From an uncultured Sterolibacterium sp. (lineage in GTDB: Bacteria > Pseudomonadota > Gammaproteobacteria > Burkholderiales > Rhodocyclaceae): a DNA stretch of 64,000 nucleotides. Below are positions 5,266-32,522 of the stretch, piece by piece. The stretch lies in contig CAYTHB010000005.1 of the NCBI GenBank assembly GCA_964437515.1, positions 3,814 through 67,813 of the forward strand, given 5' to 3'. Numbering within the stretch: the stretch's first letter is position 1; every line of letters begins with the position of its first letter. A program made the translations under genes and the position numbers. The notes beneath the pieces were generated by a model, which was not told the DNA's origin, ran no database searches, and was given only the letters and a program-made list of their open reading frames with translations.

Positions 5266-7470
5266 TTATGCCAGAGGCAGATGAAGTGTGACTTCTGCGC
5301 CGTGGGGATTGCAATTGGCGATACGAATATCGCCTCCATGTTCATCGATGATTTTCTTGACGATGGCCAGCCCGAGTCCGGTTCCTTTGGACTTTGTCGT
5401 GACATAAGGCTCAAAGGCATGCGTCAATATTTGCGCGGGGAAACCGCAGCCATTGTCTTTCACTGTAATCGAAACGCCCGTGTCATCCCGTTGGGTTGAC
5501 AGGTGAATTTCAGGTGTCTGATCCGGGAATTCTTTGCGGGCATCCTCACCGGCTTCCTGCGCGTTTTTCAGCAGGTTATGAATGACTTGACGCAGTTGTG
5601 CCGGATCACCGGCTACGGCGGGGAGTTGAGGCGTCAGTTTTGCATCCGGGCGGGCCATACTGTTTTCATAGAGATCCAATACCTCCTGAATGAGTGTGTT
5701 CAGGTCGATGGCCTGAATCTGCGCAGGTGGCATACGTGCGTAATCACGGAATTCATTCACCATGCTTTTCATCGCCTCTACCTGATTGACAATGGTGCGT
5801 GTCGCCCGATTCAACAGGGCGCGTGCTTCGTCATCGAGCTTGTCAGAGAGCTTGTGTTGCAGCCGTTCAGCAGAAAGCTGTATGGGCGTCAGAGGATTCT
5901 TGATTTCATGCGCCAGTCGTCGTGCTACTTCGCCCCAGGCCAAAGAGCGTTGAGCGGCGATTAGTCGGGTGATGTCGTCGAAGACAAGCACATAGCCTCC
6001 GCCCGTGGCATTGGGTAGTGTGGAGCCTCTAATCAGAAGGACTTGGGTCACGCGCATTCCACCGGTTTCGGTGCTGCCGATTTCGAGTTGTTGCTGCCAT
6101 GTCCGGAGTTCGGAGGACGGTGCGTCTAGTGGCATGAAGCCCTGGAGAATCGCTGTTCTGAATTCAGCATGACGTGGCCAGTCGCTTAGGGGCAGGTCGT
6201 CGATGTCATTCAATGGGTCATTCAAAATGGTGCAGGCACCCCGGTTGTTGGCACGCAACATGAATTGACGATCAAAAGCCATGACTCCGGATGACAGATT
6301 GGCCAGCACACTTTCCAGATAGGCACTGGCCGCTTCGACCTTGCTGCGATGACGCTCGGTTTCCTCGCGGGCTTCGGAGAGCTGGCGGGTCATGCGATTG
6401 AAAGACTGGGTCAGAACGCCTAGTTCATCGTGAGTTTCCAGTGAGGCGCGCGGGGTGAAATCACCGGCAGCCACCGCTTGTGTACCTTCGGCCAGAATCA
6501 GCAAGGGTGCTGCAATGCGACGCGCCAGCAGAAGTGCGAGTGCGGTGGCGGCAAAGAGTGCCAAGAGCAGGGTCAAGGTCAAGGACAGCATGTAAATACG
6601 ATTGAGCCCCGAGCGTCCCAAGGATAATTCCTGATAATCTCGATAAGCCGATTCCACGCTGCTGGCACTTTGGGCGATTGTCGATGGTACGGTGCGGGTG
6701 GCTTGCAGTATGCGTGCCTCGCTTGCCGGGGCATCACCGGATAACGGCATTCGTATCCATACGCGCAATATCAGCCCACCTTTGCCGTTGTCTTCAATCC
6801 GCGATCCGCCCGTTTTGACGTGCTGTGCTTCTTGCACGAGAGGAACAGCAGATACAGCAGATAGTGGAGTGATCGGCGGTGCCGTGGGAGGCGGGGCATT
6901 GGGTTGGTTGGTGCTGTGTGCCAGAACTCGCCCCCGTGCCGAAAAAAGGGTCAGGCTCGTCAGGTTGGCTTGTTCGCGGAGCTTGTCGAAGCGTGCCGGA
7001 CGGGTATCCTGGGGGTGGCTTAACTGTGCAGCAAGACGTGCTGTCTGTTCGCGAAGTTCGTCCAGTTGGCCATCGAGTACATTGCGGGCGAGTTGCAGCC
7101 CCCCTTCTAACGCACGGTCGACGCGTACATCAAACCATGAATCGATGCTGTTGACGACAAACTGCATCGATACGCCATACACCAAGGCACCGGGCAACAC
7201 GGCCAGCAAAGCCAGCATCAACAACAGGCGAGACTTGAGGCGCACGCCAAAGATTCCCTGTCTGTATTCGCGGCGCAGGCGCGCCAGCTGGATGAGCACG
7301 GCCACCAACAGGGTGACGATCAGCAATACATTCAGTCCGATTAGCAGTGGATAGTCGTGCGCAAACAGGGCGGTGTTCGCGCTGGCGGTGGTCAGCAGGA
7401 ACAATAAGATGGCACTGAGCGTAAAGCCCAGCACGGCGATGAGGATGGCGGATTTTTTCCGGAAAGCCAT
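5266..7470 (-). CDS. ntrY: NtrY-like sensor histidine kinase (TM-HAMP-PAS-HisKA-HATPase)
   Basis: H-box LAHEIKNPLTPIQLSAERL. ATPase boxes NLLKNAQEA, DNGCGF, GTGLGLAIVKKI. N-terminal TM helices. Start set at ATG 7470 (MAFRKK) because the five upstream codons (MYFTL) are repeat-element sequence. Confidence 0.8.
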   Translation of the reverse strand: MAFRKKSAILIAVLGFTLSAILLFLLTTASANTALFAHDYPLLIGLNVLLIVTLLVAVLIQLARLRREYRQGIFGVRLKSRLLLMLALLAVLPGALVYGVSMQFVVNSIDSWFDVRVDRALEGGLQLARNVLDGQLDELREQTARLAAQLSHPQDTRPARFDKLREQANLTSLTLFSARGRVLAHSTNQPNAPPPTAPPITPLSAVSAVPLVQEAQHVKTGGSRIEDNGKGGLILRVWIRMPLSGDAPASEARILQATRTVPSTIAQSASSVESAYRDYQELSLGRSGLNRIYMLSLTLTLLLALFAATALALLLARRIAAPLLILAEGTQAVAAGDFTPRASLETHDELGVLTQSFNRMTRQLSEAREETERHRSKVEAASAYLESVLANLSSGVMAFDRQFMLRANNRGACTILNDPLNDIDDLPLSDWPRHAEFRTAILQGFMPLDAPSSELRTWQQQLEIGSTETGGMRVTQVLLIRGSTLPNATGGGYVLVFDDITRLIAAQRSLAWGEVARRLAHEIKNPLTPIQLSAERLQHKLSDKLDDEARALLNRATRTIVNQVEAMKSMVNEFRDYARMPPAQIQAIDLNTLIQEVLDLYENSMARPDAKLTPQLPAVAGDPAQLRQVIHNLLKNAQEAGEDARKEFPDQTPEIHLSTQRDDTGVSITVKDNGCGFPAQILTHAFEPYVTTKSKGTGLGLAIVKKIIDEHGGDIRIANCNPHGAEVTLHLPLA

Positions 7471-7631
7471 TAGCGTGAAATACAAAAATCAGAGTCGGGT
7501 TGAAGTTTCGAGCGTAGCGAACCAATCAGTAGCCGCCCCTTGAGGGGGCGGATGGGTGGGGTAGGCGTATTTGGTATCGGGTAACGATTATTTCATCCTC
7601 TGCGGGTGGAGATGGTCACCATGATCGTTAG
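7470..7631 (+). repeat. Interspersed ~154-nt structured element, copy 1 of 6 (162 nt)
   Basis: TTAG|CGTGAAATACAAAAATCAGAGTCGGGTTGAAG...GGGTAACGATTATTTCATCCTCTGCGGGTGGAGATGGTCACCATGATCGTTAG. Aligns end to end with the copies at 9696, 14054, 22272, 29979 and 32369. Confidence 0.9.
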
Positions 7632-8263
7632 TGATTCTCGTAGACGGATGCGCTTCCGGGAATGAATTGCCAGTGCAGGACACGGGCTTCGATCGTCCAG
7701 TCCTTGTTGGCGATGGCATCGAGCTGGAGGGGCTTGGGGAGCTGTTGGCGATCGAGCGATAAACGCGTGGCAACCTGATAAGGCTCACCCAGTTTGAGCT
7801 TGTTGCGATCGACGACTGGCAAGGCCACAGTGCGTCCCATGACACGCAGGGCTTCGGCCAGTTTTGGGAAATCCTGGCTCAATCCACGTCCGCCACTGGA
7901 GAGGCGGTAAACGCGTGAGAGCGGAATGTAAGCCAGACGATAATTGAAAGTACGACCGGCGATATGTTCTCCCGGCCAGAACCAGCGATTGCGTGTGATT
8001 TCGACTTCGAGCTGAAAATACAGCGGGACACCCCGCAGCAGGATGTCTTCGAGATAGCTGCCTAGGTCAATATTGAAATCGGCCGTGAGCACATACGTCT
8101 CATCATTGGCCGTCAGCCGTGCCGAACGAGCTTCGATGCTACCGGCTTGTGCCAGCGGAGGGGTGGTGATACTGAACAGGCAAAGCAGGAACGTCAGAAC
8201 CAGTGTGCGCCAGCGCCATGGGGCGAAGGCGACGGGGTCAGCAACGTTTTTGCAAAAGCGCAT
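7628..8263 (-). CDS. DUF4390 domain protein (conserved rsmB-ntrY linker gene)
   Basis: Start chosen at MRFCKNV (residue 82 of ORF 7628..8506), giving a signal-like N-terminus. Family-typical LYFQLEVEITRNRWFWP...YRLAYIPLSRVYRL. Conserved position between rsmB and ntrY in betaproteobacteria. Confidence 0.7.
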   Translation of the reverse strand: MRFCKNVADPVAFAPWRWRTLVLTFLLCLFSITTPPLAQAGSIEARSARLTANDETYVLTADFNIDLGSYLEDILLRGVPLYFQLEVEITRNRWFWPGEHIAGRTFNYRLAYIPLSRVYRLSSGGRGLSQDFPKLAEALRVMGRTVALPVVDRNKLKLGEPYQVATRLSLDRQQLPKPLQLDAIANKDWTIEARVLHWQFIPGSASVYENH

Positions 8264-9638
8264 AAAAAAAGCCGTCGTGTTCCGCGCTGGGGATGAGTTG
8301 AAGGAAGCCGTCGTGCCGAGGGGCTGGGGTCGTGCCTGCGGGGGGCGACAGCGGCAGCGTGTGAGCATCGGTATGACGGTGCAAAAAAGCATCGATCTGG
8401 GCGGTATTTTCCAATGGAAACAAGGAGCAGGTGCAGTAAAGCATTTTGCCACCTGGCGCGAGTGTGCGCCACAGAGCATCGAGAATTTCACGTTGCGTTC
8501 GGGCAAAGCCGATCACATCCTGTTCGCGCCGTAACCACTTGATGTCCGGATGACGGCGAACCACGCCGGAAGCCGAGCAGGGAACGTCGGCCAGAATGCG
8601 GTCAAAAGGGCGGCCATCCCACCATGCGTCGACATCACGGCAGTCGGCAGTTTTGACTGTCGCGCCATGAGCAAGATTCAGACGGTGCAGATTCTCCTCG
8701 ATACGTTTGCTGCGGCTGGCATCCGCTTCCAGTGCCAAGAGTTCGACATGGACACGCTCCAGCAGGTGTGTGGCCTTGCCGCCGGGAGCGGCGCAGGCAT
8801 CGAGGATGCGTTGCCCATCCTTTGCATCGAGCAGATAGGCGGCTTGCTGTGCGCCCCAATCTTGTACCGTCACCTGGCCTGCAAAAAAGCCGGGCAGTTT
8901 GTCCACGGCGACAGGGCGTTCCAGTCGTATCGCAGCGACATCAAGAACCTGAGCCGGGATGTTCAATGCATTCAGTGCTGCACAATAATCGGCGGTATTC
9001 TCCTGCCGTTGATTGACGCGCAAGGTCATGGGGGGATGCGTGTTTCCGGTCTGGAGAATGGCTTGCCATTGTTCGTGGGTGGCGTAAGCCGTGCGTATCT
9101 TGTCGATCCACCAGCATGGGGTGCGGTAATGAGCAACGACGTCATTGTTTGCATCAGTTAGTAGTGACTCACTTTGACGTATTCTGTTGCGTAGCAATGC
9201 ATTTGCTAAAGCCTTGAACTGTCCGCGCCCGATGCGTGCGGCCGCTTCGACGGCTTGATCCACCGTGGTATGCGCATCTTCGGAGCGTGTTTCGAGCCGG
9301 TACAAGGCGACGAGCAGCAAGGCGCGCAACAAGGTTTTGCTGCTTTGCGTATCGGACGATTCCAGCGGTTCGCGCAGCAAACGCTGCAATAGAAAATCGC
9401 CCCGACCATATTGACGCAAGGTGCCGTAAGCTAAATCCTGTATGGCGCCACGCATCGCCGGTGTGGGGGCGTGGGTTTGCCAGCAGGCACTCAACGTGTG
9501 ATCGAGATTGCGTCCCGCAATCACCTGCTGCACGGCTTCCGCCGCACGCAGTAGCGCAAAGGCAAGCGAGTCACTGGGAAGAGGTGATAAGGGCGGCGGG
9601 GGTGCGGAGTGAGTGCGATTGGGTGAACGAGGTTTCAT
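8238..9638 (-). CDS. rsmB: 16S rRNA (cytosine967-C5)-methyltransferase RsmB (Sun)
   Basis: NusB-like N-terminal half plus m5C MTase core (DACAAPGGKATH, DRILADVPCSASGVVRRHPDIKW, GGKMLYCTCS). Start at MKPRSP (ATG 9638). Confidence 0.88.
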   Translation of the reverse strand: MKPRSPNRTHSAPPPPLSPLPSDSLAFALLRAAEAVQQVIAGRNLDHTLSACWQTHAPTPAMRGAIQDLAYGTLRQYGRGDFLLQRLLREPLESSDTQSSKTLLRALLLVALYRLETRSEDAHTTVDQAVEAAARIGRGQFKALANALLRNRIRQSESLLTDANNDVVAHYRTPCWWIDKIRTAYATHEQWQAILQTGNTHPPMTLRVNQRQENTADYCAALNALNIPAQVLDVAAIRLERPVAVDKLPGFFAGQVTVQDWGAQQAAYLLDAKDGQRILDACAAPGGKATHLLERVHVELLALEADASRSKRIEENLHRLNLAHGATVKTADCRDVDAWWDGRPFDRILADVPCSASGVVRRHPDIKWLRREQDVIGFARTQREILDALWRTLAPGGKMLYCTCSLFPLENTAQIDAFLHRHTDAHTLPLSPPAGTTPAPRHDGFLQLIPSAEHDGFFYALLQKRC

Positions 9639-9695
9639 GGGCGCGCATCCTAGCATGGGCGTGCTACTGTGGATTTTTGCTGCATGAGATATCTG

Positions 9696-9849
9696 TTAGC
9701 GTGAAATACAAAAATCAGAGTCGCGTTGAAGCTTCGAGCATAGCGAGCAAATCAGTAGCCGCCCCTTGAGGGGCGGATGGGTGGGGTGGGCGTATCGGGT
9801 AACGATTATTTCATCCTCTGTGGGTGGAGATGGCTACCATGATCGTTAA
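9696..9849 (+). repeat. Interspersed ~154-nt structured element, copy 2 of 6
   Basis: TTAG at left junction, ends ...CATGATCGTTAA. Full-length alignment with the other copies. Confidence 0.9.
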
Positions 9850-9998
9850 TCCAAAGCTTACGGCACCCTCGCTGTGAATGGGGTAGCGGACATTTCAGTT
9901 TTGGATTGACACCTTCCGAGTTCGGTCGCTTTGGTCGCCAGTTGGAAAAATTTGCACTATCCTGCTGTCCTTGACCAATCTTCGACTGACCCCATTCC

Positions 9999-10750
9999 AT
10001 GCCCCAAAACACCAGCGAAAGCGCAATTCTGAAGGTCACGGAGCGGACGATCTACCGACTCGCGGCAGCCAAGAAAATACCGGCCTTCAAGGTCGACGGG
10101 ACATGGCGCTTCCGGGCGGCGGATATCGACGGCTGGATAGCTTCAAGGTGCTTTATCTTGAGAGCTACGAAGACACCATGAACAACCTGCAACTGCGCCG
10201 CAAGCAAGCCCAGGGCGATCTGCTGAACACTCTGCCACAAGAGGCCAAGGACGACTACCTGTTCCGCTACATGCTGAACGTGGAAAGCCGTGGTTCGCTG
10301 TTGTCGGTGGAAGACTTCAAAAAGCCCTTCGACTATCAGCTCAACGTGGCCGTGGATTCGGCGGGCGCCTTCGAGCCGCGCAAGATCGATCTGGTGGAAA
10401 CCTTCAACTACCTGATCGGCCTGCGCGTAAAGCACATCGACATGCAGCCTGCACGAGGTTTTACCACCGTCACCGGCGCGCTGCCCAGCGGTGAGACTTG
10501 CCTCGTGCTGTGGCGCGATTGCGAGGTGTTGGACTACGAAGGCGTAGCCAAGCTCTGCGACAAGCTGGTCATCAACTCGGCGGACAACGAGTTTGATGTG
10601 GTCTATATCAACGGCGATCACAACATTCCCACCGTGCTGACGCAGACGCTTGAGGAAGGCGGTGAAGCAGGCCCAACGACGCGCGTGCTCAAGCTGCGCC
10701 AGATCGAACCGGAGTTTTTGGAACGCATGTTCAGTGTGGAGGATGTGTGA
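9999..10750 (+). pseudogene. Remnant of a type III-like DNA methyltransferase (Mod): N-terminal excisionase-type HTH joined out of frame to the C-terminal tail; catalytic core deleted
   Basis: Frame 0 encodes ILKVTERTIYRLAAAKKIPAFKVDGTWRFRAADIDGWI (HTH_17-like). From about 10140 a different frame reads FKVLYLESYEDTMNNLQL...INGDHNIP...KLRQIEPEFLERMF, typical of the C-terminal region of such methylases. No SAM or DPPY/NPPY motifs anywhere. Confidence 0.55.
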
Positions 10751-11820
10751 TGGCGAATGACCAGCATTTGACGGCCAGCGACGGCCTTGCGCCTTTGCTC
10801 GGCACGCTGCGTCAGCTCATCAGCGATGCACGCAGCCGGGCACTGCGTGCGGTGGATGTGATCCAGGTGCAGACTTACTGGCAGGTGGGTCGCCATATCG
10901 TGGAGTTTGAGCAAGAAGGCGCAGCGCGGGCGGCTTACGGTAAGCGTCTGTTGCCTCTGCTGGCCGAGCGGCTGACGCAAGAGTTTGGCAAGGGCTTTGA
11001 CGAGCGCAACCTGCGCCATATGCGAGCATTTTTTCAAGCTTTTCCAATTTGGGACGCAGTGCGTTCCGAATTGAGCTGGACGCATTATCGCCTGCTCACC
11101 CGCGTGGACAAGGCTGAGGCGCGCCACTGGTACATGACCGAGGCGGCTATCCAGAACTGGAGCACCCGCGCCCTGGAGCGGCAGATCGGCACCCTGTTTT
11201 ACGAGCGTTTGCTGCTCAGCCAGGACAAAGCCGCCGTGGCCGCTGAAGCCGGGCACAAACTGGCCGGGCTGGCCAAGCTGGAGCAAAGCCCGCGTGCCTT
11301 TGTGCGCGACCCGGTGATGCTGGAGTTTTTGGGTTTGCCCGGCAGCGGCGCGTTGCTGGAGGCCGGTCTGGAACAGGGCTTGATGGACAAGCTACAAGCC
11401 TTTTTGCTGGAGCTGGGCAAGGGCTTTGCGTTTGTGGCGCGGCAGCAGCGCATCAGCACTGAAAGCAAGGATTTCTACATTGATCTGGTGTTCTACAACT
11501 ACCTGCTCAAGTGCTTTGTGCTGATCGACCTGAAAACCACCGAGCTGACGCACCAGGACATCGGCCAGATGGACATGTATGTGCGCATGTACGACGACTT
11601 GAAGCGCGGCGAGGGCGACAACCCGACGGTGGGTATTTTGCTGTGCGAGAGCAAAGATCAATCGGTGGTGCGCTATTCGGTGCTCAACGGCAGTGAGCAG
11701 CTATTTGCCAGCCGCTACAAATTGGTGTTGCCCAGCGAGGAAGAACTGCGCGCCGAACTGACCCGCGAGGCGGAGATGATCCGCCTGACGATGGATATCA
11801 GCAAGGAGGAAGGGGCGTAA
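10747..11820 (+). CDS. PDDEXK nuclease, YhcG/DUF1016 family
   Basis: 357 aa, intact. N-terminal helical region (QVQTYWQVGRHIVEFEQEG...YGKRLLPLLAERL) and C-terminal PD-(D/E)xK-like core (FYIDLVFYNYLLKCFVLIDLKTTEL). 4-nt overlap with the preceding fragment. Confidence 0.8.
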   Translation: MMANDQHLTASDGLAPLLGTLRQLISDARSRALRAVDVIQVQTYWQVGRHIVEFEQEGAARAAYGKRLLPLLAERLTQEFGKGFDERNLRHMRAFFQAFPIWDAVRSELSWTHYRLLTRVDKAEARHWYMTEAAIQNWSTRALERQIGTLFYERLLLSQDKAAVAAEAGHKLAGLAKLEQSPRAFVRDPVMLEFLGLPGSGALLEAGLEQGLMDKLQAFLLELGKGFAFVARQQRISTESKDFYIDLVFYNYLLKCFVLIDLKTTELTHQDIGQMDMYVRMYDDLKRGEGDNPTVGILLCESKDQSVVRYSVLNGSEQLFASRYKLVLPSEEELRAELTREAEMIRLTMDISKEEGA

Positions 11821-12887
11821 TGGCGAAGAAAAAACAGGAGGTTTCCATCGTTCGTTCTTCGGCGGCGGAATATCTCACTTTTATCGCCTCCACCGGTTCG
11901 CAGGAAACCGCTGTGGAGATGCGCTATGAAGACGAGAACATCTGGCTCACGCAGAAGATGATGGCCACGCTCTACGAGGTGACCGTTCCAGCGATCAACC
12001 AACACCTGAAGCGCATTTTTGCTGATACCGAGCTGACAGAAGTGGCAGTTATTAAGGATTACTTAATAACTGCCACCGACGGTAAAAACTACAGCACCAA
12101 GCACTACAACCTGCAAGCCATCATCGCGGTGGGCTTCAAGGTAAATAATCCGCGCGCAGTGCAGTTCCGCAAGTGGGCGGGGCAGATCGTCAAGGACTAC
12201 ACCATCCAGGGCTGGACGATGGATGTGGAGCGCTTGAAAAAAGGCCATCTATTTACCGACGAATACTTCCAGCACCAGCAGGAGGTCATTCGTGAGATTC
12301 GCCTCTCCGAGCGCAAGTTCTACCAGAAGGTGACGGACTTGTACGCCACAGCCTTCGACTACGACGCCAACGCCCATACCACGCGTGAGTTTTTCGCGCT
12401 GGTGCAGAACAAACTGCATTGGGCGGTGCATCGGCACACGGCTGCGGAAGTGATCATGGCACGCGCCGACGCGGGAAAGTCACACATGGGGCTGACATCG
12501 TGGGAGTCCGCGCCGCGCGGCAAGATCGTGAAATCCGATGTATCCATCGCCAAGAATTACCTGAGCGCACAGGAACTGGAATATCTGGAACGCATCGTCT
12601 CGCTGTATCTGGATTTTGGTGAGCTGCAAGCGGTGCGGAAAATTCCGATGACGATGGCGGACTGGGCGAAACGACTGGATGGCTTTCTGGAGTTCAACGG
12701 CAACGAAATCCTCACCGGACCGGGCAAGATTTCACACGAACAGGCCAAGCTGCACGCCGAAACTGAGTTCGAGAAATACCGCATCGTGCAGGATCGCCTG
12801 TTCGAGAGCGATTTCGACCGACTGCTGAAATCCGCCGAACCAATGTACCTTGAAGCGCCGCGCAAGAAGAAGAGGAAGACCGAATGA
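11820..12887 (+). CDS. RhuM family virulence/defence-island protein
   Basis: 355 aa, intact. RhuM signature region ENIWLTQKMMATLYEV...INQHLKRIF...HYNLQAIIAVGFKVNNPRAVQFRKWA. Overlapping stop/start with both neighbours. Confidence 0.8.
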   Translation: MAKKKQEVSIVRSSAAEYLTFIASTGSQETAVEMRYEDENIWLTQKMMATLYEVTVPAINQHLKRIFADTELTEVAVIKDYLITATDGKNYSTKHYNLQAIIAVGFKVNNPRAVQFRKWAGQIVKDYTIQGWTMDVERLKKGHLFTDEYFQHQQEVIREIRLSERKFYQKVTDLYATAFDYDANAHTTREFFALVQNKLHWAVHRHTAAEVIMARADAGKSHMGLTSWESAPRGKIVKSDVSIAKNYLSAQELEYLERIVSLYLDFGELQAVRKIPMTMADWAKRLDGFLEFNGNEILTGPGKISHEQAKLHAETEFEKYRIVQDRLFESDFDRLLKSAEPMYLEAPRKKKRKTE

Positions 12888-13971: not shown

Positions 13972-14017
13972 GTGGACATCGGGTCACGAAATCGGCGAAC
14001 TAGTGCGAGCTCAATCG

Positions 14018-14055
14018 AAAAACCTGCTGGATTGTAGACTTGCACGCGGGTTTTT
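14018..14055 (+). terminator. Possible hairpin terminator after the Res remnant
   Basis: AAAAACCTGC...GCGGGTTTTT (10-bp stem with one G-T pair, 18-nt loop) followed by a T-run that merges into the TTAA junction of repeat copy 3. The large loop makes it weak. Confidence 0.3.
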
Positions 14056-14293
14056 AACGTGAAATACAAAAATCAGAGTCGGGTTGAAGCTTTGAGCGTA
14101 GCGAACCAATCAGTAGCCGCCCCTTGAGGGGGCGTAGGCGGGGTTTCACGGAGCACTGCTCCGTGCCGCCGAAGCCGGACGGCTGTGCAAAGCCGTCCGT
14201 GGGGGATGGGTGGGGTAAGCGTATCTGTTATCGGGTAACGATTATTTCATCCTCTGTGGGTGGCAGTGTGGAGATGGCTACCATGATCGTTAG
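14054..14293 (+). repeat. Interspersed structured element, copy 3 of 6 (240 nt; carries nested 70-nt insert at 14135-14204 and a 7-nt internal duplication)
   Basis: TTAA|CGTGAAATACAAAAATC... ...CATGATCGTTAG. The insert contains hairpins CACGGAGCACTGCTCCGTG (14147-14165) and GGACGGCT-GTGCAA-AGCCGTCC (14177-14198). Confidence 0.9.
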
Positions 14294-14399
14294 CCATCCA
14301 AGTCGCCAGGAATGCGCATCATCGTCGCTCAGTCAGTAAGAAGTAATAACATCTGCTGCGTGAGATAATCACTGATTCTTCAGCTTTCTGGAGTCTGCC

Positions 14400-22271: not shown

Positions 22272-22490
22272 TTAGCGTGAAATACAAAAATCAGAGTCGC
22301 GTTGAAGCTTCGAGCGTAGCGAGCAAATCAGTAGCCGCCCCTTGAGGGGGCGCAGGCGGGGTTTCACGGAGCACTGCTCCGTGCCGCCGAAGCCGGACGG
22401 CTGTGCAAAGCCGTCCGTGGGGGATGGGTGGGCGTATCGGGTAACGATTATTTCATCCTCTGCGGTGGAGATGGTCACCATGATCGTTAG
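22272..22490 (+). repeat. Interspersed structured element, copy 4 of 6 (219 nt; same nested 70-nt insert at 22353-22422)
   Basis: TTAG|CGTGAAATACAAAAATC... ...CACCATGATCGTTAG. The insert matches that of copy 3 apart from a single T/C difference at its second base. Shares the GCGG..GGTCACC variant with copy 1. Confidence 0.9.
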
Positions 22491-22898: not shown

Positions 22899-22962
22899 TG
22901 CGATCCGACGGAGTCGTGCAACCGAACGGTGTAGTCTTTACAACAAATCTTACCCCGCAAAG

Positions 22963-24460: not shown

Positions 24461-24530
24461 GTTATTCAACCTGCTTTCCTCTGATGAAAATGGATGCAAA
24501 AAACGATACTGCAAACGACCTCTCCTGAAA

Positions 24531-24599
24531 CGGCACATCCCCGCAAGAGCGAGGATGTGCCGGGAGCCCTGCGCTTCGACCGGTGAGTTCCGGTCGAAG
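24531..24599 (-). other. Two perfect 10-bp-stem hairpins in the DUF1302-DUF1329 intercistronic spacer
   Basis: CGGCACATCC...GGATGTGCCG (24531-24562) and CTTCGACCGG-TGAGTT-CCGGTCGAAG (24574-24599). Confidence 0.7.
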
Positions 24600-24625
24600 T
24601 TCCTGATAATTACACCGTAATTGCC

Positions 24626-26611: not shown

Positions 26612-26738
26612 ACGGTCGCCCCAGCCTTTGTTTTCAAGCGTCACGTTCTTTCCCCCTGCGTATTTTTCGTCAAATGCCGTTGTTTTCATTGTTTATGGCA
26701 TGGTGCCCTGCCACATTATGATATGACCATGTTAACTT

Positions 26739-26754
26739 TGTGAATATACGCACA
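26739..26754. promoter_or_regulatory. CRP-like site TGTGA-N6-GCACA upstream of DUF1302 paralog 1
   Basis: TGTGAATATACGCACA, 9 of 10 consensus positions, about 130 nt upstream of the start at 26611. Confidence 0.3.
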
Positions 26755-26762
26755 CATTGTTG

Positions 26763-26792
26763 TCCGACATCGTCTTTTTGGACGATGTCGGA
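26763..26792 (-). terminator. 12-bp-stem hairpin between the two DUF1302/DUF1329 pairs
   Basis: TCCGACATCGTC-TTTTTG-GACGATGTCGGA, about 25 nt after the stop of DUF1329 paralog 2. No clear U-tract on the minus strand. Confidence 0.35.
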
Positions 26793-26815
26793 TCCACATC
26801 AGGAAAAAAATCGAA

Positions 26816-28225
26816 TCAACGCCCGATGGCCTTCATGTTTTCCACGGTGTAAAAGCTGGTCTTGTCATACGCCACCCCGGGTGGGTTGGTCAGGAAGTAC
26901 TTTGCCTTGCCCTGCGCCAGATCGAAGGCGGAGTAGGCGCCGAAATCCAGATCATGATAGAAGGCCGCTCCTGCATTGAACACATTGGCGCCTGGCGCAT
27001 AGTACAGATTCACCCAGTTGTATCGCCATAATTTGCCCCGGCTGTCGAAGTTGTCCGCCATGACGGATTGCCAGCTATCTTCGTCGATGAACAGCACGCG
27101 CCGACCATATAAATGGCGATGGCCTTCCTTGAGCGTGGCTTCCAGCACCCAGACGCGATGCAGTTCCCAGCGCACGAATTCGGGATTTTCATGCCCCGGC
27201 TTGAGTAGATGAGCGTAACGGTCTTCGCCCACCTCACGCGATTCCAGACGGAAACCGTTGTAGGGAATGTACATTTCCCGTTTGCCCAGGATTTTCCATT
27301 GATATCGGTCAGGCGGGCCGTTGAACATTCGCGCATCATCAACCATGACGGTGCCACCGGACGATTCGATGTTCTGGTCATAGCCATAGCCCGGTAGCTG
27401 ACGTACCCGACGAGTATCGGGACTGTAATACCAGCCTTGCCGTGGGCTGCTGGTGTAGTTGAAATGATCCGTTACCAGCTTGACCGTGCCTTTTTCGCGC
27501 TCGGGCAGCAGCGCCAGCCCCATGATGACGGATGAAGCCCCTTCGTAACGTGCACCGCGCAAACGCGGGTCGCTGACCCGCGAGTAGCCCCAGAGGATCT
27601 GCCAACCCCGCATGATCTTGCCACTGGGATAAACGAGTGCTGTATCGGTATCACGATAATCCCATGAGGCGCGCACTGGCAGCAGGCTGTTCCAGACGAG
27701 TTCGAGCCCGCTCTTGGGTATTGGGAAGGGCGCAGCGCCCATATAAGCATTCGCGACACCCATGCCATCCGAGGTCAGCTCGGCACTGCCGGCGTTCTGG
27801 AGCGAAATGCGACACATCGCATCGTCATAACGAAAATCACGATGTGAGGGATAGACATGCATCCGGAATGTGGATGGATATTTCTTGAACATCGCCAACT
27901 GCCCTTCAGATAGATGGCTGGCATATTTGGCGACATTCTGCGCCGTGATGGTCAATAGCGGTTTTTCGGCGGTATAGGGATTCTGAGGGTGCTTGCCCTG
28001 CTCTGCGGTCATGCCGGGGGCGGCACCGAGCCATTTGCCGGTGTATTCCGCCACGCCGGATGCGGTACCGGCCTTTTCTGCACCCAGACAGGTCAATGAT
28101 TTGCCCAGACGGGCGATTTCATCCGGTGTCGCCTTGGCCAGTGCTCCGCCAGCGACTGTCATGAATACGGCACCTGCACAGAAAAGCCGCTGGATGTGTG
28201 TGAAAACCCGAGTCTGTCTGTTCAT
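26816..28225 (-). CDS. DUF1329 family protein, paralog 2
   Basis: Start at MNRQTRVF with signal peptide ...GGALA. Same motif set as paralog 1 (YPSHRDFRYDD, RRVRQLPGYGYD, FVRWELHRVWVLEA) but much more diverged. Confidence 0.8.
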   Translation of the reverse strand: MNRQTRVFTHIQRLFCAGAVFMTVAGGALAKATPDEIARLGKSLTCLGAEKAGTASGVAEYTGKWLGAAPGMTAEQGKHPQNPYTAEKPLLTITAQNVAKYASHLSEGQLAMFKKYPSTFRMHVYPSHRDFRYDDAMCRISLQNAGSAELTSDGMGVANAYMGAAPFPIPKSGLELVWNSLLPVRASWDYRDTDTALVYPSGKIMRGWQILWGYSRVSDPRLRGARYEGASSVIMGLALLPEREKGTVKLVTDHFNYTSSPRQGWYYSPDTRRVRQLPGYGYDQNIESSGGTVMVDDARMFNGPPDRYQWKILGKREMYIPYNGFRLESREVGEDRYAHLLKPGHENPEFVRWELHRVWVLEATLKEGHRHLYGRRVLFIDEDSWQSVMADNFDSRGKLWRYNWVNLYYAPGANVFNAGAAFYHDLDFGAYSAFDLAQGKAKYFLTNPPGVAYDKTSFYTVENMKAIGR

Positions 28226-28260
28226 TTTGTTCTTTCTGTCCGGAATCAGTGCCGGCATCA

Positions 28261-29916
28261 TCAGAAGCGATAACTGGCGGTCAATGCCACAAAGTCGCGA
28301 TCAGTGAGTGTGCGGAAGCTGTGGTCACGCCAATCGGGTTTGCCGAGGAAATGTATCAGCTTGATCCCCAGTTCCAGATTCTGTTGATAGGAAAAAGTCA
28401 CCCCTACACCCAAACGACGGTCATTATCCCCCTGCAATCCCGAATTCCAGCCTTGTAGGGCGGGATTGCCGCGTAACTGGTGCATCCAGTCGAGCGGTAT
28501 GGACATGTCCCATCCCGAAAAGAGCTGGGGGTATTTCAGGGTCAGACCCATCGCGTAAGCCATCGTGTTTTTATCAAACTTCGGGGTCGCAGAGACTGAC
28601 GGCGCACCGCTATAGGCCGGAACATCAAAACCATTGAGGCTGCTGGTGACGACTTCGGCACTGGCTTGCGCGGTATCCACCCCCAGCACACCGCCCAGAA
28701 ACTCGGGGCCCCAGAGACGTATGGCGGAAAGCTGGGCATTGGTCACCCGACCGCGTGCCAACTGATAATGGCTATCCGCCATCATGATCGGCGCACCGTC
28801 GCGATACGCCAGCTCACCTGCTACATTGAACTCACCCAGTTTGGTGGAAAAACTCGTACCCACCAGATTGATGTCGTCCATATAGCGTGTGCGGAAGCTG
28901 GAGGGTGCCAGATTGGCAAGCATCGGAACGGAAACGGCGCCCTGTCCTAAAGATCCGAAGGTGCTGCCGTACTGGAATTCTGGCAGGCCGAGCAATTCGT
29001 GGTAGCGCAGGTAATACGCGCCGACATCCGTGGCTTCGGTGAGTTGGTATTTAAGCCCCACCCCCCACTGCCCACCCGCCTTGCGGCCTTCATCGGGCGC
29101 GCGCCAGGCACCGGTATTCATCCCGCTGCCAAATCGCATGAAATTGGCACCGGGGCCGACCAGATCGGTATAGCTGAAGTAACTACCCACCGGCATGACT
29201 TCTGATTCACGAAACGTCCATTTGCCATAGCCCATCAGGGTCATGCGTTCATTCACGCCCAGCGTGGCGGAGACTTGCTCGGAAGGAAGGAACATCTCCT
29301 TGATGGGCGTTCCGGGAATCTGCGCCTTGTAGCCGTCCTGCGGATTCATGGCACCGCCGATGCCCGTGAAATAAAGCCCTTCACCCCAGGCCACGACCTG
29401 TCGCCCGACACGCACCGTCAATGGAGAAGGCGCATCATCCGAGCCGACATTCCAGCGTCCCTGCACATAGGCATCGAGCAGACGGGTGCGTGAACCCACG
29501 AGATTTTTCACGCTCGATGTGTATTCGTTCGATGGCGTGGCTGCATTGAACGTGGCTTGTGAAGTGTTGGCATTGCTGCGATCCAGCGCGGCATCATAAA
29601 CGCTACTGAGCCGCACGAAGGCACGGTAATCCTGTTGGCGTAAATCGATATCCAGCAGCGCACCCAGGCGGTTGCTGATCGTGCCATGCCGACCCACGGT
29701 GCGGTTTCCGTCATCCCCGTTGATGGCCAGTGGGCTGGCGGTGTCGACCAGCACCGAAGCCGGGTTGTTCAGACGTTTCATGTGCGTCCATGACAGCTGT
29801 GCCGAGACATCCAGCACCATCTCGTTATCAAACGTCATGGGCTCGAATGCCCATGCGCTGCCTGACAACAAGGAAAACGACATTCCCATACTCAGCCACA
29901 TCGGCACAGGTCGCAT
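28261..29916 (-). CDS. DUF1302 family predicted outer-membrane beta-barrel protein, paralog 2
   Basis: Start at MRPVPMWLSMGMSFSLLSGSAWA. Upstream ORF codons are repeat copy 5. Ends ...ALTASYRF. Colinear with paralog 1. Confidence 0.8.
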   Translation of the reverse strand: MRPVPMWLSMGMSFSLLSGSAWAFEPMTFDNEMVLDVSAQLSWTHMKRLNNPASVLVDTASPLAINGDDGNRTVGRHGTISNRLGALLDIDLRQQDYRAFVRLSSVYDAALDRSNANTSQATFNAATPSNEYTSSVKNLVGSRTRLLDAYVQGRWNVGSDDAPSPLTVRVGRQVVAWGEGLYFTGIGGAMNPQDGYKAQIPGTPIKEMFLPSEQVSATLGVNERMTLMGYGKWTFRESEVMPVGSYFSYTDLVGPGANFMRFGSGMNTGAWRAPDEGRKAGGQWGVGLKYQLTEATDVGAYYLRYHELLGLPEFQYGSTFGSLGQGAVSVPMLANLAPSSFRTRYMDDINLVGTSFSTKLGEFNVAGELAYRDGAPIMMADSHYQLARGRVTNAQLSAIRLWGPEFLGGVLGVDTAQASAEVVTSSLNGFDVPAYSGAPSVSATPKFDKNTMAYAMGLTLKYPQLFSGWDMSIPLDWMHQLRGNPALQGWNSGLQGDNDRRLGVGVTFSYQQNLELGIKLIHFLGKPDWRDHSFRTLTDRDFVALTASYRF

Positions 29917-29978
29917 TCTGAAACGTCTTTTTTGATGAGTCGCTACTTCAAAATCCGGCACGGATGATTCCTTTGCAA

Positions 29979-30132
29979 TTAGCGTGAAACAACGAAAACG
30001 GAGTCTGGTTGAAGCTTCGAGCATAGCGAGCCAATCAGTAGCCGCCCCTTGAGGGGCGGATGGGTGGGGTGGGTGTCTAGGGTAACGATTATTTCATCCT
30101 CTGTGGGTGGAGACGGCTACCATGTACGTTAA
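29979..30132 (+). repeat. Interspersed ~154-nt structured element, copy 5 of 6 (most diverged)
   Basis: TTAG|CGTGAAACAACGAAAACGGAGTCTGGTTGAAGCTTCGAGC... ...GGAGACGGCTACCATGTACGTTAA. Confidence 0.88.
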
Positions 30133-30411
30133 TGAGCTTATCCCCACGGGGCTGGACGGGATTATGACGAACACATTGCATCATCCTCAGCAAGAATTCC
30201 CCATTACGGGTAAGGCCATGCCCCCAAAACATTCTTCATTCGACGCATCGGGCGACGGCACGCCCCTCGATGGTGTACCATGTATAGCTTTGTCACATTC
30301 GCGGCCTGAATAATGCGATAAGCGCATGATTATTCCATTTTTCATGACGTTTACAAGTGGTTTATCGAAAAATTCCACACTGACTATAAAATTTCAATCT
30401 GGGAGAACACC

Positions 30412-31545
30412 ATGGCTGACACCCCCGACCTGACTCAGGTCAAAACTTCAACGCGCGATCTCGGCGTGATTCAGCAAAAGCTGACCGCATGGATGGAAAA
30501 AACGCTCGGCGCAGGTTCAGCACCCGAACTATCGGAAGTGCGTAATCCGGGTACCGGGGGCATGTCCAGTGAAACCCTGCTGTTCGACATGCGCTGGAAA
30601 GAAAACGGTGTCGCCAAGTCTGGCTCTTTTGTCGGCCGCCTGCCGCCCGCCCCCGATGCGCATCCGGTGTTCCCAAAATATGATTTTCCGCTGCAAGTGG
30701 GCGTGATGCGTCTGGTCGAACAGCGCAGCAAAGTGCCTGTGCCCAAGGTGTTGTGGGACGAACCCAACGAAGCCGCACTAGGCATGCCCTTCTTCGTCAT
30801 GGCACGCGCCAGCGGCGAGCCGCTACCTGACCTGCCCCCCTATCCCTTCGGCGGTTGGTTGCTCGATGGCACGGCGGAGCAGCAGCAACAGTTGCAGAAC
30901 AACTGCGTGGCCATGATTGCCGGCATCCACGGCGTGAAAACCACCGCCGAAGAAGTCGCTTTCCTCATGCCCAAGCACACGAACGGCTCAATGATGCGGC
31001 GTATCGTCGATGACTGGAAGGACTACTACGACTGGGCGCGTGAAGGGCTGGATGTGCCGCTCATCACCGAAATGATGGCCTGGCTCGAAGCAAACTGGCC
31101 AGCCAGCGAAAGTGCATCGGTCATTAACTGGGGCGATGCACGGCCAGGCAACATCCTCTGGGAAAACTTTGAACCCAAGGCGGTGCTCGACTGGGAAATG
31201 GCGGTCTTCGGCCCGCGCGAAATGGACATCGCCTGGCTGATTTTCTTCCACAAGTATTTCCAGTACATCGCGCTGGGGCTAGGCTTCCCCGAAGCCCCGA
31301 TGCAAGGCTATATGACACGCGATGCCATCGTTGCCGAATACGAACGTCTGACCGGCGTGAAGCCACAGGACATCAACTGGTATCTGGGCTTCAGCGTGCT
31401 ACGCATGGCGATGTTCGATGTCAAAGTGAGCAAGCGTGCACTGCACTTCGGCGAGCGTCAACCGGAAGAAGATCCCAATAACTATCTGTTTACCCGCGAA
31501 ATCATCCGCACGATTTTGCGCGGCGAAGATCCGTGGAATTTCTGA
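30412..31545 (+). CDS. Phosphotransferase (APH/choline-kinase-like) family protein
   Basis: 377 aa. Kinase-like catalytic loop [13 protein letters not shown] and DWEMAV. Family commonly found next to acyl-CoA metabolism genes. Confidence 0.8.
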
Positions 31546-31580
31546 ACAACAGACACACCAGAACCTGAAAGGTAAATCAA

Positions 31581-32363
31581 ATGGCATTCAAAGGAAAAGT
31601 GGCACTCGTCACCGGCGGCGCCAGCGGCATGGGGCAACTCGATGCCGTGCGGCTGGCCAAACAGGGCGCGAAAGTCGCCATTCTCGATCTCAACGATAAG
31701 GGCTTGCAGGAAACCGCCGCGCAGTCGTCCAACATCAAAGCGTACAAATGCGATGTCTCCGATCTGGAAAATGTCCGCCAGGTCATCGCACAAGTCGAAC
31801 AGGAGCTGGGACCCGTCGATCGTCTGGTGCATTGCGCCGCGATCATGCCCGGTCAGTCCCTCAAAGACATGCCCGCCGAGCTCATCAACAAGGTCATGGC
31901 GATCAACTATTTCGGCACGGTCAATCTCACCAAAGTATTGATGCCGCTGATGGAAAAGCGCGGTGGCGGCGACATCATCCTCTACGGCTCGATGGCCGGC
32001 TCAGTGCTCACCCATAACCTCGGCGCGTATTGCGCGACCAAGTCGGCGATCAACAGCTTTGCCGAGATTCTGGTGCGCGAAAACAAGCACAGTCCGATTC
32101 GTTTCCTGCTGGTCTGCCCACCGATGGTGAACACCCCGCTGGTCAGCCAGGCCACGGCGCATGGTCCGGAAAGTCTCAAGGATTCCGCCAAGACCGGCAA
32201 GAACATGGCTCAGCCGCAGGAAATTATCGATGCCGTCGAAGCCGCGCTCGATCGTGGCGACTGGGTGGTACGCCCGAAACCCGCCGGTTTTATGATGCTC
32301 TGGCGGCGTCTGTTCCCCGATTCGATGTGGTGGGTCATGGAAAAAGCCAACAAGGTGGCGTAA
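31581..32363 (+). CDS. Short-chain dehydrogenase/reductase (SDR)
   Basis: 260 aa. TGGASGMG cofactor motif and YCATKSA catalytic motif. Confidence 0.88.
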   Translation: MAFKGKVALVTGGASGMGQLDAVRLAKQGAKVAILDLNDKGLQETAAQSSNIKAYKCDVSDLENVRQVIAQVEQELGPVDRLVHCAAIMPGQSLKDMPAELINKVMAINYFGTVNLTKVLMPLMEKRGGGDIILYGSMAGSVLTHNLGAYCATKSAINSFAEILVRENKHSPIRFLLVCPPMVNTPLVSQATAHGPESLKDSAKTGKNMAQPQEIIDAVEAALDRGDWVVRPKPAGFMMLWRRLFPDSMWWVMEKANKVA

Positions 32364-32368
32364 AGTCA

Positions 32369-32522
32369 TTAACGTGAAGTACAAAAATCAGAGTCGGGTT
32401 GAAGATGTGAGCGTAGCGAGCAAACTAGTAGCCGCCCCTTGAGGGGCGGATGGGTGGGGTGGGCGTATCGGGTAACGATTATTTCATCCTCTGTGGGTGG
32501 AGATGGCTACCATGATCGTTAG
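32369..32522 (+). repeat. Interspersed ~154-nt structured element, copy 6 of 6
   Basis: TTAA|CGTGAAGTACAAAAATCAGAGTCGGGTTGAAGATGTGAGC... ...GGCTACCATGATCGTTAG. Begins 6 nt after the SDR stop. Confidence 0.9.

Follow-up and report, generated by a model that had tools for sequence, protein, structure and literature searches.

The window, a 64,000-nt stretch of DNA analysed here at its full length, carries a repeated element of about 150 nt, which raises the question of whether its copies are a mobile element that is moved in trans or the dispersed genes of a structured small RNA. The preliminary description reported six copies, all on the + strand, and repeat finding, MAFFT alignment and an nhmmer profile recovered the same six, while the same searches found no seventh copy on either strand of the window. 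They are as follows.

7470..7631, +: copy c1, 162 nt (repeat search, alignment and profile), at the TAATG stop/start overlap between a DUF4390 gene and an NtrY-like histidine-kinase gene, both on the - strand
9696..9849, +: copy c2, 154 nt, the reference copy, 40 nt upstream of rsmB and just within the left edge of a 4.67-kb islet
14054..14293, +: copy c3, 240 nt, a long form upstream of hemE, with a ~70-nt two-hairpin module (14134-14205) and indels of 7 nt and 8 nt
22272..22490, +: copy c4, 219 nt, a long form (module 22352-22423) between divergent genes, beside a Crp-like regulator gene
29979..30132, +: copy c5, 154 nt, with the 'var2' left end TGAAACA and the right end GTACG, between DUF1302 and APH-family genes
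32369..32522, +: copy c6, 154 nt, 5 nt past the stop codon of an SDR gene and between convergent genes

Copies c3 and c4 are longer because of the ~70-nt internal module. In the alignment, the 7-nt indel was found in both c1 and c3 and the additional 8-nt indel in c3. The insertions fall between genes, and every orientation relative to the neighbouring genes was found. The 4.67-kb islet around c2 is missing in L043, L058 and L065. A true MITE with inverted repeats, detected in the repeat search, lies directly beside c4 (22549-22899) and provides a contrasting case.

When related sequences were examined for empty and occupied sites, as the preliminary description had proposed, three of the six window sites proved polymorphic. 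The c5 site was empty in L020, where the flanks are 97-99% identical, and in L048 and L056. The c6 site was empty in the latter two, and here the insertion adds exactly 150 nt with nothing else altered. The c1 site, filled in the window and, by diverged variants, also in L043 and L066, was empty in L044, L062 and L068, and L068 and L043 are ~96% identical, yet only L043 has the element. The empty c1 site contains a single TTAG, and insertion into the TAATG overlap regenerated both the stop and the start signal: the DUF4390 gene takes its TAA stop from the right TTA (7628-7630), and the ATG of the kinase gene uses the T that opens the left TTAG (7470). The ORFs of the window include no transposase domain, consistent with the earlier claim that the window lacks a transposase. 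Together with the conserved ends and exchangeable interior described below, the polymorphic sites support the view that the element is moved in trans. It is mobile and non-autonomous, and not a static repeat or a set of ordinary small RNA genes.

At least 41 further copies were found, on 41 contigs of one metagenome, and diverged copies were present in two related lineages. Assemblies typically break inside copies. The clade in which the element multiplies is narrow and consists of uncultured Sterolibacterium-like Rhodocyclales, and searches of plasmids and phages gave no match to it.

Each window copy has TTAG or TTAA as its left flank, and its last four nucleotides are again one of these two, as first described. 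The left junction was TTAG in 21 cases, TTAA in 11 and CTAG in 2, and the right junction was TTAG in 28, TTAA in 10 and TTAT in 1. CTAA was never seen at a junction, so that TTAR is direct and of fixed polarity at both ends, and the flanks beyond it showed no other conservation in the target. Insertion is thus precise at a rare tetranucleotide and always in the same polarity. The left and right tetranucleotides differ in 4/6 window copies, which rules out a 4-bp duplication. The preliminary description had assumed that the left TTAR is the target and that the right one belongs to the element, and two observations disfavour this polarity. The empty c5 site has a single TTAR (TTAA), while the filled one reads TTAG at its left junction and TTAA at its right, and the R of the left junction goes with the subfamily of the left end (8/8 G versus 15 G/11 A, p = 0.034). 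The left TTAR seems to move along with the element. The junctions are explained equally well by a 3-bp duplication of TTA or by recombination at a TTA core. About 15% of copies are joined exactly at TTAA to a second copy or copy fragment, and insertion prefers sites adjoining the ends of resident copies.

The internal parts of the element, with coordinates from c2, are listed here.

9696..9731, +: left end (LE), TTAG followed by CGTGAAATACAAAAATCAGAGTCGCGTTGAAG
9702..9708, +: S1a, TGAAATA, complementary to 9807-9813
9755..9776, +: REP-like unit, GTAG directly 5' of the hairpin CCGCCCC-TTGA-GGGGCGG
9770..9790, +: G-run tract, GGGGCGGATGGGTGGGGTGGG, with G-quadruplex-type spacing
9798..9849, +: right end (RE), GGTAACGATTATTTCATCCTCTGTGGGTGGAGATGGCTACCATGATCG followed by TTAA
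9800..9813, +: internal 14-mer, TAACGAT followed by TATTTCA

The core is 150 nt, with extra hairpin modules in the longer forms, where the added module contributes a second GTAG-footed hairpin. Among 27 copies the ends were conserved and the interior was modular: the element tolerates indels of 7, 8 and 70 nt, and the L043 variant has exchanged its interior entirely and kept only the ends. The LE is A-rich and is kept across three lineages, and of all blocks in the family the RE is the best conserved. The first half of the 14-mer pairs with the right terminus (9842-9848) and the second with the left subterminus (9702-9708). The latter 7-nt complementarity between LE and RE covaries, each of three lineages having its own Watson-Crick haplotype (window TGAAATA/TATTTCA, L043 TGAAACA/TGTTTCA, L066 TGAAACC/GGTTTCA), and the successful var2 subfamily has a mismatch in this helix. 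The reported absence of terminal inverted repeats holds except for the CG adjoining TTAR, as none were found in any of the four possible registers. The palindrome GAAGCTTC, previously listed as an internal module, is replaced by GAAGTTTC in c1, GAAGCTTT in c3 and GAAGATGT in c6, and its position is the most variable spot among the 27 copies. The G-run tract, the first run of which doubles as the 3' arm of the CCGCCCC-TTGA-GGGGCGG hairpin, is present as described, but it has shrunk to three runs in both c4 and the L043 variant.

That hairpin was found in 6/6 window copies and is the only thermodynamically robust structure (-9 kcal/mol as single-strand DNA, z -3.6, with 0/200 shuffles folding equally well). 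This sole strong hairpin lies ~60-70 nt from either end and is missing in the L043 variant. For the proposed terminal hairpin, the stem TAACGAT/ATCGTTA was perfect in 5/6 copies, but c5 has 2 mismatches and the fold is weak. As single-strand DNA the ~50-nt right-end hairpin reached -5.7 kcal/mol (z -1.55), in the two diverged lineages shuffled sequences folded just as well, and the hairpin is not kept by compensation in c5 or L043. Since the left end is unstructured (z +1.83) and the right-end hairpin weak, the 'subterminal hairpins' of the preliminary description were rejected.

The + strand carries all six window copies, and co-orientation was also found in the copy pairs of L036, L032 and L040; two inverted LE fragments were found (L002 and L030). 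The chance of co-orientation had been put at 1/32, which stands as a two-sided value, but intergenic TTAR sites number 26 on + and 14 on -, and given this distribution the one-sided value is ~0.08-0.10. The strand bias is thus only modest after allowing for TTAR availability. The window starts with mnmG-rsmG-parA-parB on the + strand and its GC skew is positive from 1 to 24 kb, so the + strand is probably the leading strand, i.e. the lagging-strand template.

The earlier hints of single-strand transposition, namely the lack of inverted repeats, the 4-nt target of fixed polarity and the co-orientation, are real, and the internal GTAG-footed hairpin of REP form is a further one. Mobilisation in trans by an HUH-type single-strand DNA transposase, of the IS200/IS605 TnpA, RAYT or IS91 kind, is our tentative best guess. 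Such an enzyme would recognise both conserved ends of the element (~35 nt on the left, ~55 nt on the right) on the + strand and cut at the TTAR of each, giving a single-stranded circle with the joint ...ATCG-TTAR-CGTG..., which would be pasted at another single-stranded TTAR. In the polarity that fits best, the element would bring its left TTAR and integrate directly 5' of the target TTAR, and the target tetranucleotide would therefore adjoin the right end, as in IS91, whereas in IS608 it lies 5' of the left end. Folding or synapsis of the single strand may be assisted by the internal REP-like hairpin and by the complementarity of the 14-mer to both termini, and the interior hairpin modules could be exchangeable cargo. 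The Y1 transposase or RAYT gene suggested as a source was sought with phmmer (queries IS608 TnpA, IS200 TnpA, a Sulfolobus TnpA and E. coli RAYT), and no match was found at E <= 10 in 368 kb, comprising the window and 59 related loci.

One point against an HUH enzyme is that the joint, CGTTAACG, is palindromic, as expected for the site of a dimeric double-strand recombinase. Conservative site-specific recombination is a serious rival, though fairly unlikely. Here a trans-acting serine (IS607- or Tn4451-type), tyrosine or DEDD recombinase would act through a double-stranded circle whose joint (...ATCG-TTAR-CGTG...) holds one TTAR, with crossover within the TTA core of the target TTAR. This predicts the junction inheritance exactly, the base after the left TTA coming from the element and that on the right from the target, as seen at the empty c5 site and in the association of left R with subfamily. 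The joint is an 8-10-bp palindrome centred on TA (CGTTAACG, or ACGTTAACGT in the GTACG variant), end hairpins are unnecessary, matching the weak end folding, the empty sites are seamless, and tandem or abutting copies would be natural if targets resemble the joint. However, the target resembles the joint in 4 nt at most, the ~11-14 nt of target identity needed by IS110-type recombinases was not observed, and co-orientation is left unexplained beyond the strand asymmetry of TTAR (6/6, p ~0.08-0.1). No recombinase gene was found adjoining any copy and, to our knowledge, no high-copy non-autonomous derivatives of site-specific-recombinase elements (IS607, Tn4451 types) have been described.

A MITE moved by a DDE transposase with a 3-bp TTA duplication, the element proper then being R-CGTG...ATCG (147 nt), is decidedly unlikely. 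TTA flanks both sides of every intact copy, with one TTA at empty sites, and the size, copy number and intergenic location are MITE-like, but there are no terminal inverted repeats in the four registers, L031 is mismatched (CTA left, TTA right), and a symmetric DDE synapse fails to explain a non-palindromic triplet in constant orientation to the element.

That the copies are small RNA genes or cis-regulatory RNA modules kept for RNA function, the alternative raised initially, is very improbable: the long conserved sequence, the one very stable hairpin, a fold drawable by RNAalifold and the LE/RE covariation, which could reflect an RNA helix, would suit it, but Rfam gave no family match even at E <= 10, c1 and c2 contain neither a sigma-70-like promoter nor an intrinsic terminator, the fold of the whole element is unremarkable on both strands (z -0.6 to -1.1), the L043 interior was swapped outright, indels and all orientations to neighbouring genes are tolerated, and near-identical strains differ in site occupancy.

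Among known systems, classical MITEs (Correia/NEMIS, ERIC, RUP) are similar in size, copy number, intergenic location and TA-containing insertion site, but have terminal inverted repeats and symmetric duplications, and the element has neither. Elements of the IS607/Tn4451 type, which use serine recombinases, lack inverted repeats, make no duplication, share one short core between the two junctions and move through a circular intermediate. The junction inheritance and abutting copies fit these, but their cores are 2 nt (GG or GA) and strand bias is not expected. In IS91/ISCR rolling-circle elements (Y2 HUH) the target tetranucleotide abuts the right end, the ends are asymmetric and there is no target duplication. 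The polarity suggested by the empty c5 site and the left-R association fits this group, but IS91 targets are GTTC/CTTG rather than TTAR and no such transposase was seen; we know of no miniature high-copy IS91 derivatives.

REP sequences, moved by RAYT (TnpA-REP), are defined by GT[AG]G at the foot of a 7-8-bp stem with a 2-5-nt loop (PMC6006769). GTAG with CCGCCCC-TTGA-GGGGCGG fits this definition, and the element is high-copy, intergenic and mosaic like BIMEs. Unlike those of REPs, BIMEs and REPINs, its hairpin is never alone or in inverted doublets (38/38 occurrences in the DNA searched lie inside the 150-nt element), the mobile unit is the whole element, which has sharp ends and targets TTAR, the L043 variant keeps its ends without the hairpin, and RAYT was not found. 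IS200/IS605 elements have a 4-nt target, strict strand polarity and seamless empty sites (PMC5027513; PMC10055086), and PATEs are their non-autonomous derivatives, moved in trans by TnpA (Y1 HUH). The element differs from PATEs in having no left-end hairpin, a weak right-end one, the same tetranucleotide at both ends, junctions that suggest a target TTAR beside the right end and not 5' of the left, and no TnpA or TnpB found. With its left TTAR seemingly travelling, it is not a textbook IS200/IS605 PATE. Like PATEs, it is gene-less, ~150 nt long and without inverted repeats, with many copies, conserved ends, one tetranucleotide, fixed polarity and seamless empty sites (PMC10055086, PMC5027513), and its copies are co-oriented on the probable lagging-strand template. 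The family is previously undescribed, but the type of element of which it is a variant is familiar.

The element is present in the window in exactly six copies, all on the + strand, and no copy was detected on the - strand by repeat search, MAFFT alignment or an nhmmer profile built from the copies. The positions agree with the preliminary description, as does the presence of TTAG or TTAA (TTAR) both before each copy and as the last four bases of the copy itself. The copies are:

7470-7631, + strand, copy c1
9696-9849, + strand, copy c2, the 154-nt reference
14054-14293, + strand, copy c3, long form
22272-22490, + strand, copy c4, long form
29979-30132, + strand, copy c5
32369-32522, + strand, copy c6

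The length of c3 and c4 is due to an internal module of ~70 nt, and the remaining length variation consists of 7-nt and 8-nt indels. A 21-codon ORF in the right half was considered as a small peptide and rejected, its frame being broken by these indels. Repeat search and self-comparison confirmed that there are no terminal inverted repeats, as beyond TTAR only CG matches between the two ends.

Comparison with related contigs revealed that three of the six insertions are polymorphic, namely c1, c5 and c6. One contig (L020) is a homologue of window positions 29382-32491 at 97-99% identity that lacks c5. Its empty site reads GCAATTAATGACA, while the occupied site in the window reads GCAATTAG[CGTG...ACGTTAA]TGAGC. 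Both c5 and c6 are missing from two more distant relatives (L048 and L056), and relative to these the c6 insertion is exactly +150 nt. The c1 insertion lies in the TAATG where stop and start codons of a DUF4390 gene and an NtrY-like kinase gene overlap; this site is empty in L044 and L062 (TTAA) and in L068 (TTAG), and occupied in the window, L043 and L066. L068 and L043 are ~96% identical yet differ by the presence of the element at this site, and the family has therefore been active in a second lineage too.

The copies in the other lineages are variants. In L066, similarity is ~85% over the entire element. In L043, the ends are kept and the interior is swapped for CCCTCTCCC/GGGAGAGGG hairpins. 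The two hairpins of this interior (L043 4575-4665), CCCTCTCCC-ACAA-GGGGAGAGGG and CCTCTCTCCCC-TTGT-GGGAGAGAGG, resemble each other and are mutually inverted, making up a REPIN-like doublet nested within the element. Keeping the ends while exchanging the interior is a hallmark of non-autonomous transposons and not of RNA genes, and we are confident that the six repeats are a non-autonomous mobile element. The sRNA gene family put forward earlier as the alternative is very unlikely, as no Rfam 15 covariance model matched the element at the gathering threshold anywhere in the window, or in any relevant way over 7300-14500 at E <= 10, c1 and c2 show neither promoter-like nor terminator-like signals, and folding of the entire element is unremarkable (z -0.6 to -1.1 on both strands, as RNA or DNA). 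The only Rfam match elsewhere in the window was a 6S RNA (SsrS) gene at 38124-38301 on the + strand (RF00013, 46.8 bits, barely over the gathering score).

Of ~185,000 species-representative genomes, one contains the exact right-end 24-mer, an uncultured Sterolibacterium MAG in which the match lies where a contig ends. Consequently, either the family has a narrow distribution or its copies are lost at contig ends. A 22-mer was found in 41 contigs, all from metagenome Ga0154020, and many of these begin or end within a copy, as expected of a high-copy repeat. Distant blastn searches of 72,556 plasmids and 50,697 phages gave no match, and a degenerate right-end pattern gave only two chance matches, in coding DNA, in IMG/VR. 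The nearest relatives of the neighbouring hemE, priA, rsmB and DUF1302/DUF1329 genes are from Sterolibacterium and Rhodocyclaceae MAGs.

No candidate for the mobilizing enzyme was found. Transposase-like domains (Pfam or NCBIfam) were absent from ~45 ORFs of the window. No Y1 transposase or RAYT gene, as envisaged in the preliminary description, was detected in 368 kb of window and related loci when four Y1/RAYT queries were run by phmmer against all six-frame ORFs. The 111 ORFs of the metagenome contigs were also compared with one another by blastp, and no multi-copy protein emerged.

Several other features lie close to the copies. Adjoining c4, at 22549-22899, is a different, classical MITE-like repeat with 62-nt terminal inverted repeats that are 89% complementary and 227 nt apart. 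These contain the hairpin CCCCTCCACAGGAGGGG and GGCGAAGCCGGACGG, and the motif GCCGAAGCCGGACGG recurs in the 70-nt module of c3 and c4. A relative of this repeat directly follows priA in L043 (10370-10600), a contig that lacks the window segment 17857-22543 with its CHASE2-adenylate/guanylate cyclase, FecR-domain and Crp-like regulator genes and c4. A 4.67-kb islet (9692-14352) separates rsmB from hemE, which are adjacent in L043, L058 and L065. It carries genes for a YhcG/DUF1016 PD-(D/E)XK nuclease and a RhuM-family protein as well as two orphan ORFs, of which one contains a P-loop-like GSGKT motif, and is bracketed by the 13-nt direct repeat GCTGCRTGAGATA, with c2 and c3 just within its ends. 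A simple composite transposon made up of c2, the four genes and c3 was rejected, because the islet boundaries marked by this direct repeat lie 4 nt and 59 nt beyond the copies. The window also includes a 58-nt unit with internal palindromes, repeated three times in tandem (60094-60267; 100%, 100% and 90% identical) and flanked by genes for an enoyl-CoA hydratase and a DUF4143 ATPase. At 23075-30024 and 55464-56855 are two tandem DUF1329-DUF1302 pairs and a third DUF1329 paralogue, which is inverted, 31 kb away and 84% identical over 1334 nt; the products are outer-membrane/LolA-like proteins typical of the clade.

The junctions of all copies with readable ends were tabulated.

Tetranucleotides at the element junctions
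Left junctions (n = 34): TTAG 21, TTAA 11, CTAG 2, TTAT 0, CTAA 0
Right junctions (n = 39): TTAG 28, TTAA 10, CTAG 0, TTAT 1, CTAA 0

As CTAA never occurs, the tetranucleotide is a direct repeat of fixed polarity and not an inverted one, and target recognition is asymmetric. Outside TTAR, no conservation was seen in the 34 left and 39 right flanks. In four of the six window copies the left and right tetranucleotides are unequal, and a 4-bp duplication is therefore excluded. The flanks share only a polar TTA triplet, which is compatible with a 3-bp TTA duplication.

The preliminary description had assumed that the left TTAR is the target. This corresponds to the arrangement in IS608 (PMC5027513) and is disfavoured by two observations. 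At c5, TTAA at the empty site corresponds to a left TTAG and a right TTAA at the occupied one. In addition, the left TTA is followed by G in 8/8 copies of the var2 left-end subfamily (TGAAAC), compared with 15 G and 11 A in var1 (Fisher p = 0.034), while no such association was seen between the base after the right TTA and the right-end variant (p = 0.27). Both observations point to the right TTAR as the target and to a left TTAR that is carried along by the element, if not entirely then at least in its final base. This polarity, opposite to that of IS608, would be expected from IS91-like insertion 5' of the target, from a TTA-core crossover or from TTA duplication. A mirror-image, IS608-like reading on the - strand is unlikely because the active strand would then be the leading-strand template.

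The replication direction was judged from the first part of the window. Positions 1-3918 carry mnmG (cut by the window start), rsmG, parA and parB, all on the + strand. These genes adjoin oriC and are transcribed away from it, and we take this to be the origin-proximal cluster. GC skew is +0.09 to +0.18 across 1-24 kb, also where genes are on the - strand. Based on the gene positions and the positive skew, + is probably the leading strand and the parental + strand the lagging-strand template, with moderate rather than firm confidence as the skew is ~0 from 24 kb on. TTAR is rare in this genome, with 61 sites on the + strand of the window, 12 of them contributed by the elements, and the free intergenic sites number 20 on the + strand and 14 on the - strand. 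The six copies fill about a quarter of the intergenic + strand TTAR sites of the window and about half of those within the first 35 kb. The co-orientation itself holds for 6/6 copies, but under a strand-blind mechanism it is less surprising than the stated 1 in 32, as the strand asymmetry of TTAR gives p ~0.08-0.1.

Seven of ~45 copies abut another copy or fragment exactly at a shared TTAR. The shared site is TTAA in five cases, a degenerate CTAG in L012 and, in L011, a TTAG internal to the other copy. In L037 and L024 the upstream neighbour is an older or fragmentary copy; there is a left-end fragment downstream in L042 and L038, an inverted left-end fragment in L002 and a degenerate remnant in L012, while L011 has an insertion at the internal TTAG of another copy followed by a deletion. 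The rate far exceeds the expectation from the number of TTAR sites, indicating that the machinery is drawn to existing ends or to structures formed by them. One metagenome contig (L030, 40-1273) includes a cassette of 109-aa and 170-aa ORFs, a candidate toxin-antitoxin pair, between a right-end copy and an inverted 48-nt left-end fragment.

The internal modules proposed in the preliminary description differ in how well they are conserved. The hairpin CCGCCCC-TTGA-GGGGCGG is real and strong (-9 kcal/mol as ssDNA, z -3.6) and is the sole strong hairpin, central in the element. The palindrome GAAGCTTC, listed there as a module, is the spot of lowest conservation, and the G-run tract is conserved only in part. 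The terminal hairpin retains a 7-bp closing stem (TAACGAT/ATCGTTA) that is perfect in 5/6 copies, and is weak overall, with a right-end z of -1.55 in the window, +0.20 in L043 and -1.16 in L066. The left end (9696-9731 in c2) is unstructured (-1.7 kcal/mol, z +1.83), with an A-rich stretch of ~60 nt that has less structure than shuffled sequences. The element therefore lacks the feature that defines IS200/IS605, a pair of similar subterminal hairpins, one at each end.

Directly 5' of the central hairpin is GTAG. This matches the operational definition of REP sequences in PMC6006769, in which GT[AG]G lies within 0-2 nt of a stem of 7-20 bp closed by a loop of 2-5 nt, and a strict scan recovered GTAG with a 7-8-bp stem and a 2-5-nt loop in c1, c2, c5 and c6. 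The identical REP-like sequence in c3 and c4 includes a bulged G, and most long-form copies have a second GTAG-footed hairpin. Across the window and the related loci, 38/38 occurrences of the REP-like unit are inside the element, in one orientation.

The two ends may also be connected by an internal 14-mer, TAACGAT|TATTTCA, whose first half complements the right terminus (ATCGTTA) and whose second half complements the left subterminus (TGAAATA). With both helices formed, the result would be an H-type pseudoknot clamping both ends. The left pairing covaries (TGAAATA/TATTTCA in the window, TGAAACA/TGTTTCA in L043 and TGAAACC/GGTTTCA in L066) and in L066 a single compensatory change, A-T to C-G, is seen in the right pairing. 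The covarying pairs were tabulated by script as the MAFFT alignment misaligned these columns, and the set unbiased for covariation comprises the window, L043 and L066, the metagenome copies having been picked by a fixed right-end pattern. Chance alone would produce ~0.7 complementary 7-mers in 154 nt, copies of the var2 subfamily (c5 and others) have a mismatch in the left pairing, and co-evolving inverted protein-binding sites would also produce covariation. A second complementarity between the ends, CAGAG/CTCTG, was rejected, being incompatible with the first helix in one antiparallel duplex and shifting register between lineages.

Movement by HUH single-strand transposition is the mechanism we tentatively prefer, with confidence falling somewhat short of even. 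It is favoured by the lack of inverted repeats, the polar 4-nt target, the seamless sites, the orientation and the REP-like hairpin, and because PATEs and REPINs, the known high-copy miniatures without inverted repeats (PMC10055086, PMC6006769), use such a mechanism. An excised circle would carry the right end-left end joint ATCGTTARCGTGAAA. The missing end hairpins and the non-canonical polarity count against it. A conservative site-specific recombinase acting on a circle with the palindromic joint CGTTAACG is a lesser possibility. It accounts no less well than HUH transposition for the junction inheritance, the missing hairpins and the preference for resident ends, but leaves the orientation unexplained, and we know of no high-copy miniature family that would be a precedent. 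Rather doubtful is a distinct, undescribed class of ssDNA transposon between REP/RAYT and the IS200/IS605 PATEs, in which a single central GTAG hairpin would take the place of end hairpins, pairing with the 14-mer would join the termini in the H-type pseudoknot, a guide-like TAA would then read TTAR, DNA rather than protein would set synapsis and target, and cleavage would be 5' of the tetranucleotide. A DDE transposase making a polar TTA duplication without inverted repeats is unlikely. The remaining probability falls to mechanisms outside those listed here.

No published description of the family was found in a full-text literature search for Sterolibacterium and repetitive elements, and nothing alike is in Rfam, plasmids or phages. 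If HUH transposition is correct, the element is a natural case of the IS608 rules (hairpins at both ends, target 5' of the left end) rearranged, and it ties REP-like hairpins to a discrete, sharply bounded mobile unit, which bears on how REPs and REPINs move. If movement instead depends on a recombinase, we are aware of no earlier high-copy miniature derivative in that class. The element separates translationally coupled genes without destroying them, breaks metagenome assemblies of the clade and provides a strain-level presence/absence marker for uncultured Sterolibacterium-like bacteria of activated sludge and bioreactors.

Among known systems, a Xer/dif reading was ruled out on sequence criteria. 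IS110/IS1111 (bridge-RNA) elements need a target of >10 nt around a short core, and none is conserved beyond TTAR. Integron attC sites have RYYYAAC (R'') ... GTTRRRY (R') cores with crossover at G|TT. The right ends (GTTAGTG, GTTAATC, GTTAGCC, GTTAGGT, GTTAATG and GTTAGCA) fit in 1/6 cases, the base 5' of the left TTA is G in one of the six copies and the internal GGGTAAC is unlike RYYYAAC. DDE-type MITEs have inverted repeats and identical duplications, which are absent here, the 4-nt flanks differing in 4/6 copies. The element does contain the imperfect palindrome of 21-65 nt typical of REP/RAYT systems (REPINs, BIMEs), with GT[AG]G on the 5' side of its foot at a distance of 0-2 nt. However, REPs scatter as single units or inverted doublets, while here all 38 are embedded in a 150-nt element. 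IS200/IS605-derived PATEs likewise lack terminal inverted repeats. They have a tetra- or pentanucleotide TAM 5' of the left end without duplication; here TTAR is 5' of 34/34 left ends (as CTAG in two) and the insertion adds 150 nt, but the left TTAR looks element-borne. With respect to the lagging-strand preference of PATEs, 6/6 window copies are on what is probably the lagging-strand template, but at p ~0.08-0.1 once the strand availability of TTAR is taken into account. PATEs also carry, on the top strand of each end, an imperfect subterminal hairpin like that of the opposite end, with a guide tetranucleotide on the 5' side of its foot; the element does not show this arrangement. A trans-mobilized miniature transposon without inverted repeats is a known kind of element, and this one departs from the textbook members in its end architecture and, probably, in its polarity.
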